From NCBI GenBank assembly GCA_002402465.1, contig DHFW01000009.1:14553-78552 (forward strand): DNA of 64,000 nucleotides, in the 5' to 3' direction. Both the position numbers and the translations under genes were made by a program. Positions 5,300 through 11,777 of the stretch are shown here, piece after piece (within the stretch, counting starts at the first letter, position 1; each line of letters begins with the position of its first letter). The notes beneath the pieces are model-generated. The model worked only from the letters and a program-made list of their open reading frames with translations, did not search any database and was not told the origin of the DNA. The DNA is from Bacteroidales bacterium UBA4814 (GTDB lineage: Bacteria > Bacteroidota > Bacteroidia > Bacteroidales > UBA7960).

Positions 5300-6262
5300 A
5301 TGAAAGACAACAAGTTTGTTTTTGCCCTTTTCCTGGTCATGTTGCTTGCCTGGATTTTTCCGGGTCCGGGCGCGCCTGATAGTATTATTCCATTAAAAAC
5401 CATTGGCAGCATTGGTATTTCACTTATCTTCTTTTTTTACGGGCTGAAGCTGAGTCCTGAAAAGCTTCGGGCGGGTTTGAGCAACTTCAGGCTTCATTTA
5501 CTGGTACAACTGTCAACCTTTTTGTTGTTCCCACTGATTGTCTTGCCTTTTTTTCCGCTGATGAAAACCGAAAGTCAGCAAACGCTCTGGCTGGCCTTGT
5601 TTTTTCTTGCTGCTTTGCCATCAACGGTTTCCTCTTCGGTGGTGCTCACTTCACTGGCAAAAGGGAATGTGCCTTCAGCCATTTTCAATGCCAGTATTTC
5701 AGGCATTATTGGCATTATGGTTACTCCCCTTTGGATGGGCTTGTTTATACATGCAAAATCAGGCGACTTCGACTTCTCTCAAATCTATTTTAAACTTTTC
5801 CTTGAGATTATTTTGCCTGTAATCATTGGTTTGTTGCTCAGGCCGTGGTTGCACCAATTTACCATTCGATTTAGCCGGCAACTTACTCTTTTCGACAAGT
5901 TGGTCATTTTGCTGATCGTTTACCGGAGCTTTGCCGCTTCTTTTCATGCAGGATATTTTGAAGGAATAAGCTGGCCCGACTTGCTTATCCTTCTTGCACT
6001 GGTAATCGGTCTTTTTTTCCTGGTTTATGGAATCATTCTTTCATTAACCAGGGCTCTTGGATTTAATCGCGAAGACCGCATTACCGCCCTTTTTTGTGGT
6101 TCGCAAAAATCGCTGGTGCATGGCAGCGTTTTTTCCAATGTTTTGTTTGCCAATATGTCTGTAGCAGGCATCATGCTTCTGCCGTTAATGATTTTTCACG
6201 CGTTCCAGATTTTTGCGATCAGCGTGATTTCTTCGCGTTACGCAAAGAAGGAGAGAGCTTGA
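5300..6262 (+). CDS. Bile acid:sodium symporter (BASS/SBF-like, YfeH-type) family permease
   Basis: 320 aa polytopic membrane protein. Its N-terminus (FVFALFLVMLLAWIFPGPGA...GISLIFFFYGLKLSPEKLRAGL) and overall layout match SBF-like transporters. Confidence 0.7.
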   Translation: MKDNKFVFALFLVMLLAWIFPGPGAPDSIIPLKTIGSIGISLIFFFYGLKLSPEKLRAGLSNFRLHLLVQLSTFLLFPLIVLPFFPLMKTESQQTLWLALFFLAALPSTVSSSVVLTSLAKGNVPSAIFNASISGIIGIMVTPLWMGLFIHAKSGDFDFSQIYFKLFLEIILPVIIGLLLRPWLHQFTIRFSRQLTLFDKLVILLIVYRSFAASFHAGYFEGISWPDLLILLALVIGLFFLVYGIILSLTRALGFNREDRITALFCGSQKSLVHGSVFSNVLFANMSVAGIMLLPLMIFHAFQIFAISVISSRYAKKERA

Positions 6263-6771
6263 GGTTCAATCCTGTCCTTTAGGATAAAAAAATGCAGGTT
6301 ATTTTTTAAAAAACTTGCATGGTTCAAAACCAATGCATATTTTAGCAAACGTAATTTAAACTAAAACCATTGCAAGTGCAAATTGTGCCCATAACCGTAT
6401 CAAAAGGATGCCGGCACAGCAAAGTTTTGGCATTTACCCCCCTCCCCCCCCTCCTCTGCTAATAGCCTGATAATAAAGATTTCGCATTATTGCAGCCCAG
6501 TCATCCAAACCTTTTTGGTTGATGGGGTTAAGAAAAAAACTCATCTGATTTGGAAGCTGGTTAAGACCAATTTGGCATTGGTAACCCTATGCCGGCGTTG
6601 TGCGTTCCCCGGTGTAGGGCATTAAAAAGGTTTTTGAAACCCTGAAGGGACACCGTGCCAACCATAACACGGTCATGCAGGCTGATCTACCATATTAATG
6701 AAGCCGCAGGCACATTTGTAACCAATGCATTTTTTTGCAAAAAAATTTTTAACTTTTTAATTATTTAAGAG

Positions 6772-7029
6772 ATGAAAAAGCATTTACTTAGAATTACAGC
6801 CGTGCTTACTATTGCCCTTTTCACATTGGTTTTGTTTGGTAACGCTAAACTTGCGGCAAATTGCCCAGGAGGTACCATTTTGGTACATGTAACAGGTCAA
6901 GATATTGAAGAAGAACCAAATGGAGATAAAGTTTTCTGGCAAGCAGGTGGACATTTGGTTTATTGCCCATCAACTGGTATGGTAATAGAGGACCACTCAT
7001 ATTGGTACATATCAATGATCGTTCAATAA
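6772..7029 (+). CDS. Small secreted protein of unknown function (85 aa, about 55 aa mature, two Cys)
   Basis: Signal peptide MKKHLLRITAVLTIALFTLVLFGNAKLAA. The mature part contains NCPGG and YCPSTG. It is followed by a strong intrinsic terminator. I recognise no family. Confidence 0.55.
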   Translation: MKKHLLRITAVLTIALFTLVLFGNAKLAANCPGGTILVHVTGQDIEEEPNGDKVFWQAGGHLVYCPSTGMVIEDHSYWYISMIVQ

Positions 7030-7065
7030 ATAATGACCATTCTTACTGTTCTTTGAGACTCTTAT

Positions 7066-7113
7066 AAACGGCACAAAGCAGGCAATTTTTATCTCCTTTG
7101 TGCCGTTTTTTTT
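7066..7113 (+). terminator. Rho-independent terminator after the 85-aa gene
   Basis: A perfect 13-bp stem, aaacggcacaaag (7066-7078) pairing with ctttgtgccgttt (7096-7108), followed by a T-run. Confidence 0.8.
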
Positions 7114-7134
7114 AAACTGTGAAAAATCTTAAAT

Positions 7135-8187
7135 ATGAAAAAGATGCATTTTTTTAAACTTATCTTAATTGCATTCTTGCTAGGTTCAGCCATTTCCTGC
7201 TCATTTTTCCAAAACCGGAGTGAGAAACCCTTTGTGCTCGATCTTGACGATGTGGTCCAGACCGCCGGCAATCAACCTTTCTTTGCAAACTCTGACACCA
7301 TTATTCTTGATCCAGGAAGTCAGTTAATTCCTTCTTTCGATATTGTAAAGGAACACCATGGCAATTTTTATATATTAGACAAGAGGCAAAAGGCCATTTT
7401 CGTTTTTGATGAAGCCGGTCAATTGGCTTACCAAATTGCCAGGGAGGGCAGAGGCCCCGGAGAATACCTAAATATTTTCGATTTCTTTTTAATGGACGGC
7501 CAACTTCATATTGTTACACAACTTGGCAGGGTTTTGATTTACGACAAGGATTTGTTTATAGCCGAGTATGATCTTCCTTTCACACCAATGTATTGCGAAT
7601 ACCTTGGCGAAAATAAAGTGGCTTTTCAAAATGTTTATGAAGATTTCTCTTATAAATACAGGCTGGTTGTTTATTGTCTTGAAAGAAATGAGATAATTGA
7701 TTCGATGCCAACCGAGAAAGGTGTTGACGATGATTCTTATCCATTCTGGCGGCAAAGACACCTTTGGCCTAGCGGAAACGTTGTGCTTTATAATAATGAC
7801 TACTCGAAAGATGTCTTCATGATAACAAATAGTGGAATAGAACATCTTTTTTCAATGACCGGAGTTATTCTCCACACCGCCGATGAAATTATGGAATTCA
7901 ACAACAACCCAACCTTAAGGCAGGGGAAAAACGACAAAGTGGATTTCTTAAAAGGCTTGACCATGCATGGTAATGTGGTTTCCTTTGGTTTTCAGGTTAA
8001 CTACCTTCCATACACGGTTTTTCTTAATCTAAACGATAATACTTACAAAAGTTTTGAGGCAATAAGACCCCCATATTTCGCAGCCACGGCTCAAGGTGCG
8101 TATGGATTTTGGCCTCGCATGGCACCGCGCCCCGGGCAACCCATGGTCATTATTAATTATACCTTCGAACCACATTTACTTGACTGA
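7135..8187 (+). CDS. 6-bladed beta-propeller lipoprotein (BF3164/TolB-like propeller family)
   Basis: 350 aa with a lipobox (LLGSAISC). It has the GRGPGEY motif and the FYILDKRQKAIFVFDEAGQ blade pattern characteristic of the Bacteroidales 6-bladed propeller family. Confidence 0.6.
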   Translation: MKKMHFFKLILIAFLLGSAISCSFFQNRSEKPFVLDLDDVVQTAGNQPFFANSDTIILDPGSQLIPSFDIVKEHHGNFYILDKRQKAIFVFDEAGQLAYQIAREGRGPGEYLNIFDFFLMDGQLHIVTQLGRVLIYDKDLFIAEYDLPFTPMYCEYLGENKVAFQNVYEDFSYKYRLVVYCLERNEIIDSMPTEKGVDDDSYPFWRQRHLWPSGNVVLYNNDYSKDVFMITNSGIEHLFSMTGVILHTADEIMEFNNNPTLRQGKNDKVDFLKGLTMHGNVVSFGFQVNYLPYTVFLNLNDNTYKSFEAIRPPYFAATAQGAYGFWPRMAPRPGQPMVIINYTFEPHLLD

Positions 8188-8205
8188 AAAAATTAAATCA
8201 CCTGC

Positions 8206-9972
8206 ATGAAACTTTGGCCATTTATCATTACTCTTCTTGCACTTTTTCCATTTATTGGGGTCGGGGCATCAAACCAATGGAACAAGCATTCTTCGAGAGA
8301 AGTCAGACGCACTGTTTTGGATAGGAAAGAAACCTTTAGGCCTGGGATTATTAAAGAAGACCTGCTGGTTTTAGATTCCATATTCGTAAACAATGTGCTC
8401 TCTGAAGTGCTTACCTCGCGCATAAAAAAAGAAAGATTTGTGGTGGTTGATTCGGTTGCCGTTGGCCAAAGAATGCTTTTCAACACCCAAGGCGAACTTT
8501 TTCTTACGGAGCACTTCCGGAACGGTAAACTTGAGCGGGTTGACTGCCTTTACCCCCGTCAACAAAACCTGATACCCAACGGAAGTTTTGAGGAAGTTGG
8601 AGAAATAATGGAACATGTTAATTATACCGATTCTCGCCTTATGTCTTCCTGGGCAAGCGACTTTGAGCACGAAAGGACTGTTGAGTTGAACGAACTTAGG
8701 TTAGAGGGTAAAGATACTGTGAGGCTCGACAAAGTTACCGACACTTTTTATAACGAAGTGTCTGATTGCCATGCGACTGTGATTACTGAAAGTTTTTTTG
8801 TTTACAGGAATGGCATATTAGAAGATTCCATTTTCAGCAAGGTAATATTTAACCGTTGGTCAGGGGAACCTTGTATTATTCCCCAACATAATTGCAATTA
8901 TTATGAGCAAGGATTGGATCTTGCCAATTGGAAAAGTTTAGGTAAGGTCTCACCCAAAATCCTCAACGGGCCTGCCAAAAAACCACATCACCCTCTGGAA
9001 GGTTTTATAAGCGAACGCCGTAATTTCGATACCATTTGTGGCAACCATTTTGCCCAGGTAAGGGCTCTTGGATGGGAAAATACACCTTGCATAGTGCGAA
9101 CAGCCCATCCCGTGCTACTAAACCAGCTTAACACCACCCTGCAAAAAGGCAGGCAATATAAACTTAGTTTTTGGATTTGGAAGCCCCAGGTTTTTGCACA
9201 GGAATTTCAATTTGCAGTGGGTTTTTGGCAAAATGAGCCTGATGAAACTAAAGTTTTCCCCGAAAAAAACCTTTTGTTAGTCAGCGATTTTGAAAATGAT
9301 GTTATTGGGGAGTGGTACAAGGTAAATTTGGTGTTTAGAGCCACAGATTTTTTCCGCTTCTTAACTGTTGGATTTCATAGTTACGAACCTAGTCAGCGTC
9401 TTTTGCGTCCTTCTGCATCTTGTTACTTAGACAGTTTTGTGCTTGTGCCCGAGGACATAGCCGACCCGGATGTGGATAAATTATTTTATCAGGATATTAT
9501 TCTGGCAGCGCATCCTGAAGAATTCAATCTGTTAGCAGGTGATGGTGAGGAAATAACTGAATTACCAGTTTCTAAGGCTGGAATAGAGCCGCAATCTGGC
9601 CTTGAGGTTGAAAAGAAGGTTGCAGAAATGCCTGAATTTAGTTTCGGGCCAATTTTGTTCGCAACCAACTCTGCCGATCTTAACTTCGAGGCAATTCAAA
9701 TACTCGATAGGCTGGCCCAATTTCTTAAAGAAAACAGTTATTGGGAACTTCAAATCACCGGCCATACCGACAACGCCGGAACCCCGGAGCACAACCTGGA
9801 TTTATCCACGCAAAGGGCGGGCAATGTTGCGGATTACTTGATTGGGAAAGGCATTGAAGAAGCGCGGCTCAACATTAAAGGACTTGGCAGCACTATGCCT
9901 GTTTATACCAACGAAACCCCGGAAGGGATGCAAAAAAACAGAAGAGTAGAATTGAGATTGTATGCAGAATAA
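8206..9972 (+). CDS. OmpA-domain protein with a large N-terminal region that includes a probable galactose-binding-like/CBM-type jelly roll
   Basis: 588 aa with a signal peptide. The middle region opens with LIPNGSFEEVG and closes with CYLDSFVLVPE, the usual boundaries of CBM4/9-like jelly rolls. The C-terminus is a clear OmpA_C domain (ITGHTDNAGTPEHNLDLSTQRAGNVADYL...NRRVELRL). Confidence 0.7.
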   Translation: MKLWPFIITLLALFPFIGVGASNQWNKHSSREVRRTVLDRKETFRPGIIKEDLLVLDSIFVNNVLSEVLTSRIKKERFVVVDSVAVGQRMLFNTQGELFLTEHFRNGKLERVDCLYPRQQNLIPNGSFEEVGEIMEHVNYTDSRLMSSWASDFEHERTVELNELRLEGKDTVRLDKVTDTFYNEVSDCHATVITESFFVYRNGILEDSIFSKVIFNRWSGEPCIIPQHNCNYYEQGLDLANWKSLGKVSPKILNGPAKKPHHPLEGFISERRNFDTICGNHFAQVRALGWENTPCIVRTAHPVLLNQLNTTLQKGRQYKLSFWIWKPQVFAQEFQFAVGFWQNEPDETKVFPEKNLLLVSDFENDVIGEWYKVNLVFRATDFFRFLTVGFHSYEPSQRLLRPSASCYLDSFVLVPEDIADPDVDKLFYQDIILAAHPEEFNLLAGDGEEITELPVSKAGIEPQSGLEVEKKVAEMPEFSFGPILFATNSADLNFEAIQILDRLAQFLKENSYWELQITGHTDNAGTPEHNLDLSTQRAGNVADYLIGKGIEEARLNIKGLGSTMPVYTNETPEGMQKNRRVELRLYAE

Positions 9973-10007
9973 TCACTAGCCCCTGATCCCTAATTTTTTA
10001 ACCCTTC

Positions 10008-11777
10008 CTACATCGGCCAGAAATACATAATGGCGGGTATGCCAAGGGCCACGATAATGACTTCGAGTGGCAGCCCCATGCGCCAGTAGTCAGTAAATTT
10101 ATATCCGCCCGGGCCCATGACCAGTGTGTTTGACTGGTGTCCAATAGGTGTAAGAAATGCACAGGACCCACCCACGGCCACTGCCATCAGAAACGGGTCG
10201 ATGGATGCACCGATTCCATGGGCCACCCCAATGGCAATGGGCGCCATAAGCACCACCGTAGCGGCATTGTTTATCACGTCAGAGAGAAACATGGTGACCA
10301 CCAGGATAATGGTAAGAATGGCCCAGGCCGGAATGCTCTGCCCCAAATCAAGGATCTTACCAGCGATAAGTTCTGCTCCGCCTGTGGTTTCGAGTGCAGT
10401 TCCAACGGGTATCATAGCACCCAGCAAAACAATCACCGGCCAGTTCACGCTGGTATAAACTTCCTTCAAAGGCAAAACGCCGCTCAAAACCATTACCAGC
10501 GCTGCAATAGAAAAAGCTACCTGAACCGGTAAAAGCCCCGCCGCCACCAGAATTATAGATATTGCAAAAATACCCAGGGCCAGTGGGATCTTGGTTTTAT
10601 ATCCCAGTCGCAAGCCCCGCTGCGCCAGTGGCAGGCAACCAATGGATGTAATAGTTTCGTTAAGCATGTGTTCGCGTCCCTGTAACAGCAAAACGTCGCC
10701 CGTGCGGAAAATGACATGATCGAGGCGACGGCGAATGCGTTGCTCACGCCGGGCTACCGCCAGCAGATTAATGCCATAGCGGCTTCGCATGCGAAGTTCG
10801 GCAGTCGTACGGCCTATCAGGCTCGAATCAGCCATCACAATGGCTTCTGTTATGGCAATCTTGTCCGATCCCTCCGCGTCCTTGCGCAATTTCTGATCGC
10901 CCACCAGCTTCAGCTCGGTGTCTTTCAGAAAAGTTTCCATGTCGTCGGCATCCGACTCAATGATAATAATATCTTCTTCAAGAAGTACTTCCTCGTTTTC
11001 AGGTGCGTGCAGGCGTTTCTTCTGTCTTACAAGGCCCAGGATTTGCACATCGGCATCGGTCTTTTCAAGCAGTTCGGAAATGGTTTTGCCGGCCATTTTA
11101 GAGTCTTTCGGTATTTCAACCTCGGTAATGTAGTCGTCAATGTCAAACAGTTCCTTCTCTGATTTTTTTGCCGCTCTTTTCGGAAGAAAACGCCAGCCAA
11201 TGAGTGTGATAAAAGCTATTCCGGCAACGGTTAGCACCACTCCAACAGGCGAAAAATCGAACATGCCAAAGGGCTCGCCCAATTCGTCGGCCCTGAAAGT
11301 AGCTATGATAATATTGGGAGGTGTCCCGATCAGGGTTGTCATTCCACCCAGCAGCGAAGCGAAGGCAATAGGCATCAGAATATAAGAAGGCGGATTGCCG
11401 CTTTTGCGCGCCATATGAATGGCAATGGGCATCATTATGGCCAGGGCACCCACATTGTTCATAAAAGCCGAAGCAACAGCCACCAGCACCGACAATACCA
11501 CGATTTGCAACAATAAACTGTCGCCAATCTTCATTACCCATTTGCCCAGCAGATCGATGAGGCCGGAAAATTCCAGGGCTTTGCCAATAATAAGCACTGC
11601 CGCCACGGTGATCACTGCCGGATGGCCGAACCCTTTAAAAGCCTGATCAGGATCAACGATGCCGGCAATAATCAGCAAAAAAAGCGAGATGAGTGCCACA
11701 AAATCATGACGAATCTTTCCCCAGGCAAATAGCACCAGCGCCAGCGTCAGCGTTCCGAAAACCATCCATTGATCCAT
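10008..11777 (-). CDS. SLC13/DASS-family anion permease with central TrkA-C (RCK_C) domains
   Basis: 589 aa. Two membrane halves flank a soluble insert with two RCK_C-like segments (ITEVEIPKDSKMAGKTISEL... and ITEAIVMADSSLIGRTTAEL...). Confidence 0.75.
   Translation of the reverse strand: MDQWMVFGTLTLALVLFAWGKIRHDFVALISLFLLIIAGIVDPDQAFKGFGHPAVITVAAVLIIGKALEFSGLIDLLGKWVMKIGDSLLLQIVVLSVLVAVASAFMNNVGALAIMMPIAIHMARKSGNPPSYILMPIAFASLLGGMTTLIGTPPNIIIATFRADELGEPFGMFDFSPVGVVLTVAGIAFITLIGWRFLPKRAAKKSEKELFDIDDYITEVEIPKDSKMAGKTISELLEKTDADVQILGLVRQKKRLHAPENEEVLLEEDIIIIESDADDMETFLKDTELKLVGDQKLRKDAEGSDKIAITEAIVMADSSLIGRTTAELRMRSRYGINLLAVARREQRIRRRLDHVIFRTGDVLLLQGREHMLNETITSIGCLPLAQRGLRLGYKTKIPLALGIFAISIILVAAGLLPVQVAFSIAALVMVLSGVLPLKEVYTSVNWPVIVLLGAMIPVGTALETTGGAELIAGKILDLGQSIPAWAILTIILVVTMFLSDVINNAATVVLMAPIAIGVAHGIGASIDPFLMAVAVGGSCAFLTPIGHQSNTLVMGPGGYKFTDYWRMGLPLEVIIVALGIPAIMYFWPM

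Follow-up and report, generated by a model that had tools for sequence, protein, structure and literature searches.

Within a stretch of 64,000 nucleotides (nt) from the Bacteroidales bacterium UBA4814 (contig DHFW01000009.1, positions 14,553 to 78,552; hereafter the window, whose first letter is position 1), we find that positions 6772 to 9972 hold a rare but conserved three-gene cell-envelope module, composed of an exported mini-protein (gene 1), a propeller lipoprotein (gene 2), and a secreted beta-rich/OmpA_C protein (gene 3). The three open reading frames (ORFs), of 85, 350, and 588 amino acids (aa), are present as described in an earlier annotation of the same letters (hereafter the original prediction), and all three products read as exported proteins from their sequences (Table 1). 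From an evolutionary perspective, the central feature of this module is that a leader of ~430 nt, the mini-protein gene, and the propeller gene form together a 1.9-kb accessory cassette that is present in some genomes and absent from their relatives, and that this cassette appears to associate several old, deeply diverged alleles of the mini-protein, swapped independently, with a nearly invariant propeller. The explanation that we favor for the whole, tentatively and with slightly less than even confidence, is that of an exchanged envelope module in which the mini-protein would dock on the propeller with the gene 3 protein as an anchor, and whose polymorphism would be kept by balancing selection.

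Table 1. Features of the module and of its surroundings, in window coordinates.
Feature	Position	Strand	Description
Cassette (leader, mini-protein, and propeller)	6267..8204	.	~160 bp instead in the closest relatives (G069, L049-L051)
Promoter-like box P1	6307..6346	+	CTTG, 20 nt, TATTTTAG; common to the intergenic region of cassette-less relatives
Cassette leader	6347..6771	+	conserved, probably non-coding, ~430 nt; C-rich tract, second AACCAATGCAT box 6720-6754, hairpin 6585-6619
Gene 1, mini-protein	6772..7029	+	signal peptide 6772-6858 (aa 1-29); mature domain 6859-7026 (56 aa)
G068-like tract	7060..9400	.	closely similar to another species (G068), with 93-99% identity up to ~8850 and a mosaic of 74-93% thereafter
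Terminator-like hairpin	7066..7113	+	perfect 13-bp stem 7066-7078 / 7096-7108, T8 tail, between gene 1 and gene 2
Gene 2, propeller lipoprotein	7135..8187	+	Pfam PF17170 DUF5128 (NHL-like six-bladed beta-propeller), 350 aa
Gene 3	8206..9972	+	588 aa: signal peptide, orphan beta-rich N-terminal region, linker, OmpA_C
Gene 3 N-terminal region	aa 34-430, nt 8305-9495	+	orphan, beta-rich; CBM4/9-like jelly roll possible
Gene 3 OmpA_C peptidoglycan-binding domain	aa 484-579, nt 9655-9942	+	Pfam PF00691

The presence/absence of the cassette is directly visible in the closest relatives of the window by flanking genes, namely L049 (89% nt identity in the SBF gene) and G069 (86%), which both carry ~160 bp in place of the cassette, G069 and L049-L051 all displaying the order SBF, ~160 bp, gene 3. 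In L049 and G069, this short region includes AAAAAACTTGCAAG...TTATTTTAGCCAAC, the counterpart of window positions 6307-6350, ~60 nt before the ATG of gene 3. Because the box is thus retained in the cassette-less relatives, the cassette is seen to lie between a promoter-like box of gene 3 and the ATG of gene 3. Directly after the SBF stop codon, where the cassette of the window begins, the cassette-less loci L026 (8250-8300) and L049 (5845-5885) harbor a tandem 7-nt unit, AAGTTTA/AAGTTCA, in 4-6 copies.

By their SBF genes, the hosts can be sorted into three groups with ~70% identity between them ({window, L049, G069}, {G068, L004}, and {L052}), whereas the propeller DNA is 87-94% identical across all three, which suggests that the propeller has been exchanged recently. 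Consistently, the propellers of the window and of G068 have a synonymous divergence (dS) of 0.23 and a ratio of nonsynonymous to synonymous divergence (dN/dS, or omega) of 0.07, when the dS of the flanking genes is 1.9 (SBF) and 2.5 (CitMHS). Along a sliding comparison with G068, the identity rises from a background of ~70% to 93-99% between 7130 and 8850, becomes mosaic (77-93%) from 8850 to ~10200, and is back to ~70% beyond. Gene 3 is itself a mosaic in the window, with a 5' end like that of G068, a middle like that of L052, and a sequence like that of L049/G069 from ~9700 into CitMHS. This pattern of similarity reads as the footprint of interspecies homologous recombination of the cassette or of its parts, and we take the module to be a rare set of horizontally exchanged genes.

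On this basis, the idea of foreign DNA, put forward in the original prediction from base composition, is placed on firmer ground than G+C, and holds at least in part, given the presence/absence of the cassette and a similarity pattern that conflicts with the host phylogeny; the alternative wording of fast-evolving DNA is better replaced by that of old alleles that were shuffled. The AT-richness itself is real, albeit milder than hand counts of 33-40% G+C had indicated: the module has 41.0% G+C against 47.7% for the host genome (2.85 Mb in 55 contigs), which places it at the 4th percentile of 3.2-kb windows, and G+C at third codon positions is 0.29, 0.41, and 0.41 in the three genes, the long ORFs of the genome averaging 0.57 (sd 0.07), which corresponds to percentiles 0.4-4%. 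A line of 65% G+C sampled in argF for comparison is a local extreme, as no 500-nt window exceeds 55% over the first 20 kb of the window. In other hosts, these genes are just as AT-rich, so that low G+C belongs to the module and not to this genome alone.

The mini-protein tells of a much older divergence than the propeller. Its mature region is 62-75% identical in every pair of alleles, including G068 versus L004, whose SBF genes are 96% identical, and its dS of 0.8-1.9 is near saturation. At the same time, omega is 0.06-0.17 on scaffold codons and 0.35-0.58 on variable codons, and this purifying selection on the scaffold, together with the near-saturated dS, suggests that the alleles are old and shuffled rather than newly or rapidly mutated. 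In the distant modules, identity is 49-54% for the mini-protein, 48-50% for the propeller, and 37-39% for gene 3; that the mini-protein is still 49-54% identical there agrees with a scaffold that is fixed and variable positions that are saturated. These variable positions are concentrated in two places, the predicted beta hairpin of mature residues 7-21 and the C-terminal strand. A diversity-generating retroelement was considered as a source of this variability and rejected, since both a template repeat of the peptide region and a reverse transcriptase are absent nearby.

If the cassette is mobile, the three genes nonetheless keep company over a deep divergence. A search for their co-occurrence, advocated in the original prediction, found the trio together in six lineages out of six whose contigs are sufficient, the window included, further lineages having been reached by following the homologues of gene 3 and of the propeller to their contigs. 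Besides the window, these are G068/L056-57 (along with L010), L052/L053, L054 (where gene 3 is 39% identical), L097, and L095; L004/L005, where the mini-protein and the DUF5128 propeller are followed by the end of the contig before gene 3, were left out of the count. In L095, a 115-aa protein is homologous to the mini-protein (hhalign probability 96%, E = 1.3e-9) and accompanies a propeller of 41% identity and a 416-aa secreted protein, which matches residues 34-430 of gene 3 (BLASTP, 35% identity, E = 1e-66) and is devoid of OmpA_C, so that the constant third partner is the N-terminal region of gene 3 and not the wall anchor. The module is, however, not a uniform three-gene unit, because gene 3 also occurs without the mini-protein and the propeller (G069, L049-L051, and G054): the mobile unit is made of the leader, the mini-protein, and the propeller. 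The seven alleles of the mini-protein all come from uncultured Bacteroidales, their sources including an anaerobic-digester metagenome, a "Bacteroidales bacterium" metagenome-assembled genome (MAG), and an "uncultured Rikenella sp." MAG, and the distribution of the family is very narrow, being that of a few uncultured digester Bacteroidales.

The L095 trio (L095:1-11062; JGI 3300076002, 291-kb contig) lies inside a larger island, with a histidine kinase and a LytTR response regulator beside the module, more DUF5128 genes or fragments, and a DUF4221 protein. The leader of its mini-protein is ~50 residues longer (…NAAGDISLESISVMAQAQ…) and resembles those of other DUF5128-associated peptides of the family, such as L089.

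With regard to gene 1, its precursor opens with a K-rich hydrophobic N-terminal signal, MKKHLLRITAVLTIALFTLVLFGNAKLAA, followed by NCPGGT...YCPSTG...MIVQ. The signal is of the Sec type, ends in A-x-A, and has no lipobox, and the mature part begins with N-C-P-G-G, in agreement with the original prediction of a signal peptide and of a mature peptide of ~55 aa with two Cys (NCPGG and YCPSTG). Across the seven alleles, the invariant residues are C2, G4, G5, V9, V25, G31, Y35, C36, S38, G40, D45, and W49. All other alleles have four Cys, when that of the window is devoid of the pair at precursor positions 52 and 85, as is P0001, a 99% identical protein from another assembly. The joint loss of Cys 52 and Cys 85 suggests that disulfides pair 52 with 85 and 31 with 65; judging from the sequences, most alleles thus have two disulfide-capable pairs, and the window allele has one. 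From five sequences only, AlphaFold2 (AF2) modeled the mature domain of the P0003 allele with a predicted local distance difference test score (pLDDT) of 93 and six beta strands, so that, by this prediction, gene 1 would encode a folded mini-protein of six beta strands and not a linear precursor peptide.

This mini-protein has few relatives. A word-indexed search of 5.8 billion proteins returned three clusters only, all from its own family, and a profile search of 1.84 billion representatives returned its own family plus multi-stretch matches to repetitive giant proteins (Big_9/cadherin, HYR_4C, and fn3 repeats) that we judged spurious. The best Foldseek hit of the model in the PDB has an E of 0.22, which designates no credible relative; neither Pfam, searched with three alleles at E up to 10, nor NCBIfam returned a match. 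More specifically, PF14055 (NVEALA) is matched neither by the three alleles (E up to 10) nor by the L095 homologue (E up to 1), and the NVEALA motif is absent, which bears out the suggestion of a perhaps new family distinct from NVEALA. Pattern scans of genomes and metagenomes retrieved known alleles only, and a six-frame hidden Markov model search did not find the mini-protein in 401 genomes across the order.

Such a narrow distribution, with seven alleles and no occurrence in 400 further genomes of the order, could be taken to mean that there is no functional coupling at all: the small ORF would then be an independent periplasmic protein, or a spurious or decaying frame, which hitch-hikes beside a mobile propeller and diverges under relaxed constraint. 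The whole-gene dN/dS of the mini-protein (0.4-0.65) and the two Cys missing from the window allele can be read in the same way. Yet the search for homologues, also proposed at the outset, revealed a conserved small ORF that has retained its frame, its signal peptide, and 12 invariant residues despite a deep divergence, and a decaying frame would accord poorly with the low omega of the scaffold, with a confident fold prediction obtained from so few sequences, with the strict co-occurrence of the mini-protein and the propeller, which are lost together, and with the enrichment of small exported Cys proteins upstream of DUF5128 genes in general (see below). We therefore regard the absence of coupling as very unlikely.

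Behind gene 1, the hairpin that the original prediction had described as a perfect 13-bp-stem terminator is indeed present, its T run ending at 7113, 22 nt ahead of the propeller ATG. With a free energy of -19.5 kcal/mol (z = -6.07; equalled by 0 of 200 shuffles), it has the stable stem, the U tract, and the position at a gene end of a Rho-independent terminator, as far as sequence can tell. It is kept in G068 and L004 and weakened in L052 (one mismatch, T tract gone), and the distant L054 harbors at the same place, between mini-protein and propeller, a hairpin followed by T5 whose sequence is unrelated.

A small exported disulfide protein with its own terminator, which suggests high expression, may call to mind a secreted bacteriocin-like weapon, whose diversity would stem from an arms race between strains and for which the propeller would serve in maturation, export, or self-protection. 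Old and swapped alleles, an accessory and horizontally exchanged module, and the regulator pair adjoining the distant L095 module can all be counted in its favor, histidine-kinase/LytTR regulators often controlling peptide bacteriocins. However, the module offers no double-glycine leader, C39 peptidase, ATP-binding cassette (ABC) exporter, or other outer-membrane route, the window locus has no regulator, and the mini-protein has zero similarity to any known bacteriocin family. Moreover, an immunity partner should co-vary with its toxin, yet the propeller is 96% identical at the aa level between alleles that are 57% identical; this lack of covariation disfavors a toxin-immunity pair, and we deem the weapon unlikely. 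As for the narrower class of double-glycine-leader, class II bacteriocin precursors, it is ruled out by the Sec-type A-x-A signal and by the zero transporters between SBF and CitMHS. The bacteriocin-like short precursor peptide of the original prediction hence gives way to a predicted folded six-strand beta mini-protein, which has neither a double-glycine leader nor an adjacent exporter.

The window locus nonetheless shares with polymorphic peptide loci, such as the comC/agrD pherotypes and the class II bacteriocin-immunity cassettes, old alleles of a small product that are shuffled within conserved flanks, and a terminator of its own after the precursor gene. It differs from them in that no sensor kinase or immunity gene co-varies with the allele, in that no double-glycine or AgrB-type processing is found, and in that the product would be a folded 56-residue beta domain, so that the likeness is an analogy of evolutionary pattern only.

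The partner of the mini-protein in the cassette, gene 2, matches PF17170 with 78.7 bits (cut-off 22.9) over aa 61-308, in concordance with a six-frame search, and displays the motif GRGPGEY as well as a lipobox, MKKMHFFKLILIAFLLGSAIS-C (LGSAIS-C), read directly from the sequence. Its closest solved structure is 4raa, a "putative exported protein" (E = 1.5e-8), followed by weak matches to the NHL domains of TRIM2/3, and a scan of NCBIfam (E up to 0.1) yielded only a sub-threshold NHL match to ScyF (14.3 bits versus 350). Thus, of the "BF3164-type propeller lipoprotein" that had been proposed, the lipobox Cys and the six-bladed DUF5128 propeller are found, when the BF3164 label was unconfirmed by NCBIfam, in a library whose holding of such a model is itself unconfirmed. 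In L010 (364-1416), a contig from an anaerobic-digester metagenome, the propeller gene contains two in-frame TAG codons (72 and 83) amid clustered substitutions; this copy is either a pseudogene or the result of a poor assembly.

More broadly, 10-11 of 31 DUF5128 genes sampled from 77 genomes of the bacterial family are preceded by a small ORF that encodes two or more Cys and an N-terminus resembling a signal, against 16 of 474 control ORFs, that is, an enrichment of ~10-fold by a crude test, and a strong hairpin with a T run lies behind the small gene in roughly half of the DUF5128 cases. The proposal that such propeller lipoproteins cluster with small secreted peptides is thereby upheld; none of the small peptides upstream of DUF5128 genes in the family matches NVEALA. 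The only other DUF5128 gene of the host genome (G000, contig C29:387-2464, L060) belongs to a second cassette of this kind, in which an 87-aa exported protein with four Cys, a hairpin with a T run, and the DUF5128 lipoprotein are followed by a 206-aa membrane-anchored CxxC protein (CFPC), the 87-aa and 206-aa proteins having zero Pfam matches. Pairs of a small Cys peptide and a DUF5128 or TolB_like propeller, as found in the NVEALA (PF14055) neighborhoods of Bacteroidota, are catalogued in family databases and uncharacterized, and full-text literature searches for "NVEALA" and "DUF5128" returned zero papers. Like these pairs, the cassette of the window has a small exported Cys protein immediately ahead of a DUF5128 lipoprotein, a hairpin often separating the two, and is accessory and swappable. 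It departs from them in that its mini-protein, devoid of a PF14055 match, of the motif, and of a long leader, has a plain signal peptide and then a predicted folded beta domain, and in that the module is not linked to a signal peptidase, a disulfide enzyme, or an efflux pump; unlike in those DUF5128 pairs that have a thioredoxin-like CxxC protein as a third gene, the third gene is here beta-rich/OmpA_C.

That second cassette, with its CxxC protein, is one argument for yet another explanation, in which the propeller would be an enzyme or a foldase, such as an NHL-type peptide-processing enzyme or an oxidative-folding chaperone, and the mini-protein its substrate, gene 3 being a mere neighbor whose promoter was borrowed. 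The propeller is NHL-like, as hinted by its weak TRIM2/3 NHL and ScyF matches, and the pattern of conservation would fit a conserved enzyme whose substrate combines a recognition scaffold, likewise conserved, with a variable core. However, the N-terminal domain of gene 3 is found with the pair even where identity is down to 35-41% and the OmpA domain is missing, and a gene that stays with the pair at such a divergence is not a chance neighbor; in addition, no catalytic motif was identified, the window allele lost one Cys pair and is yet intact in two assemblies, and a thioredoxin-like gene is absent from the window locus. An enzyme-substrate relationship accordingly seems to us distinctly improbable.

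Concerning gene 3, the original prediction of a jelly roll fused to an OmpA domain stands for its second half. The OmpA domain scores 80.4 bits against PF00691 (threshold 27.2), with PDB profile matches down to 1.8e-27, and superposes in Foldseek on the C-terminal domains of OprF and Pal with target-normalized TM-scores of 0.85-0.91. The strings PNGSFE and YLDSFVLVP, from which the jelly roll had been proposed, are present in the protein, and the jelly roll itself comes down to a sub-threshold PF02018 CBM_4_9 match (17.3 bits for a threshold of 25.9), echoed below threshold in five of seven homologues, and to a model of low confidence: the mean pLDDT of the AF2 model of the 588-aa protein is 48, with values from <50 to 66 in the CBM_4_9-like region, OmpA_C alone being usable. 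OmpA_C was the sole match of a PDB profile search with the gene 3 protein, and the sole fold match of its model outside OmpA, a phage-lambda tail fibre at rank 43 with TM-scores of 0.11-0.14, is not credible. The N-terminal region is represented by seven clusters only among the 5.8 billion proteins, and no CxxC motif occurs in the 588-aa protein. Two blocks of gene 3, 8686-8865 and 8986-9165 (aa ~161-220 and ~261-320), are 57-65% identical between cassette-bearing and cassette-less genomes when neighboring blocks are 90-96% identical; they may have adapted to a mini-protein and a propeller being present, or may simply be linked recombination tracts.

The adjacency of genes for a six-bladed propeller and an OmpA_C protein recalls the Tol-Pal system, where the TolB beta-propeller binds the OmpA_C-like lipoprotein Pal (PDB 2hqs), on which the OmpA_C of gene 3 superposes. 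Unlike in Tol-Pal, the lipoprotein of the window is the propeller and not the OmpA_C protein, the TolQRA genes are absent, a polymorphic mini-protein is added, and what persists as a partner from lineage to lineage is the N-terminal region of gene 3 and not OmpA_C. Likewise, PorE, a Bacteroidota lipoprotein of the type IX secretion system (T9SS) with tetratricopeptide repeat (TPR), beta-propeller, CRD, and OmpA_C domains (PDB 6top), unites a propeller with an OmpA_C wall anchor, and its C-terminal domain resembles the OmpA_C of gene 3. Here, however, propeller and anchor are separate proteins, the TPR, the CRD, and a T9SS context are absent, and the NCBIfam PorE model scores 57 bits for a cut-off of 600.

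Coming back to the exchanged envelope module that we tentatively favor, its functioning could be pictured as follows. Transcription would start at the box near 6307-6346 and proceed through a structured leader; most transcripts would end at the hairpin behind gene 1, so that the mini-protein would be made in excess, when read-through would yield the propeller and the wall-anchored protein. A conserved face of the mini-protein (CPGGT, AGG..YCPSTG, and ED..W) would dock on the conserved propeller, either in the periplasm or at the outer membrane, and the pair would work with the gene 3 protein, which would fix the assembly to the cell wall. Specificity would reside in the variable beta hairpin (mature residues ~10-21) together with the C-terminal strand, and contact with non-self, be it a phage, a competitor, or kin, would maintain their polymorphism through balancing selection.

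Several points weigh against this picture. The propeller cannot be an allele-specific partner, because it is near-invariant while mini-protein alleles differ at ~40% of positions, and the docking on a conserved face is an assumption. The dN/dS never exceeds 1, and the old-allele reading is drawn from saturated dS over 55 codons. The nonsense codons of the metagenomic L010 propeller may mean that the propeller is dispensable, if not that the assembly is poor, and the pLDDT of the N-terminal region of gene 3 is <50 across most of its length. A perfect TAnnTTTG, the canonical Bacteroidetes -7 box, occurs nowhere on the + strand between 6263 and 7135; since it is absent ahead of both gene 1 and gene 2, the transcription model is one that we infer. 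Finally, the structure of the leader comes from four sequences, and the observed covariation measures were reached by 19-48 of 500 shuffles.

With these points in mind, a clean cassette and old mini-protein alleles beside a recently exchanged, near-invariant propeller narrow the possible functions toward contact with something variable outside the cell, which suggests a role of the module in interactions with other cells or viruses. Carried further, the mini-protein locus would be a trans-species balanced polymorphism, in which the propeller and the wall-anchored scaffold present the beta protein and the variable hairpin is a determinant for self/non-self recognition, phages, or antagonists; in this precise form, we hold it to be rather doubtful. 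Were it true, the locus would offer a compact and tractable entry to the function of the widespread, unstudied DUF5128/small-Cys-protein cassettes of Bacteroidota, pairs of a DUF5128 propeller lipoprotein and a small exported Cys protein being common in this phylum, gut species included. The locus is a clean case in this regard, with defined insertion boundaries, natural cassette-less relatives, a confident fold prediction for the small protein, and a deeply conserved third partner.

Upstream of gene 1, the P1 box is conserved in every cassette-bearing lineage and is a putative promoter. The leader that follows is 80-89% identical over 6468-6771 between hosts whose SBF genes are 70-71% identical, and occurs only ever alongside the mini-protein gene in the 77 genomes of the family. 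No ORF of at least 50 aa and no frame consistent between lineages were found in the leader, and the ORFs of 96 aa (L052:2227-2517) and 77 aa (L057:4210-4443) that gene callers annotate there are probably not genes, given that they differ in their ends and that the frame is broken in the window. Rfam gave zero matches over 6200-10100 at E up to 1, and the single-sequence folds of the whole leader, with z-scores of -0.4 and -1.5, are not significant. The pairing of its hairpin is kept through two compensatory and four one-sided changes, with G-U pairs that favor the + strand, and is suggestive of a structured 5' leader.

Two further features of the leader can be mentioned. The C-rich tract at 6437-6456 (C6 T C8 T CC T C) is an unbroken run of ~10 C in L004 and of ~8 C in L052 and is interrupted in G068; it could be a slippage-prone or a Rho-loading site, when a poly-proline mini-ORF read across it is not kept in frame in the other lineages. 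A 35-nt direct repeat (6328-6362 and 6720-6754, 392 nt apart and 80% identical), which contains AACCAATGCAT(A/T)TTTT(A/T)GCAAA, has its first copy overlapping the promoter-like box and its second copy 18-52 nt ahead of the mini-protein ATG, and may correspond to a duplicated promoter or operator.

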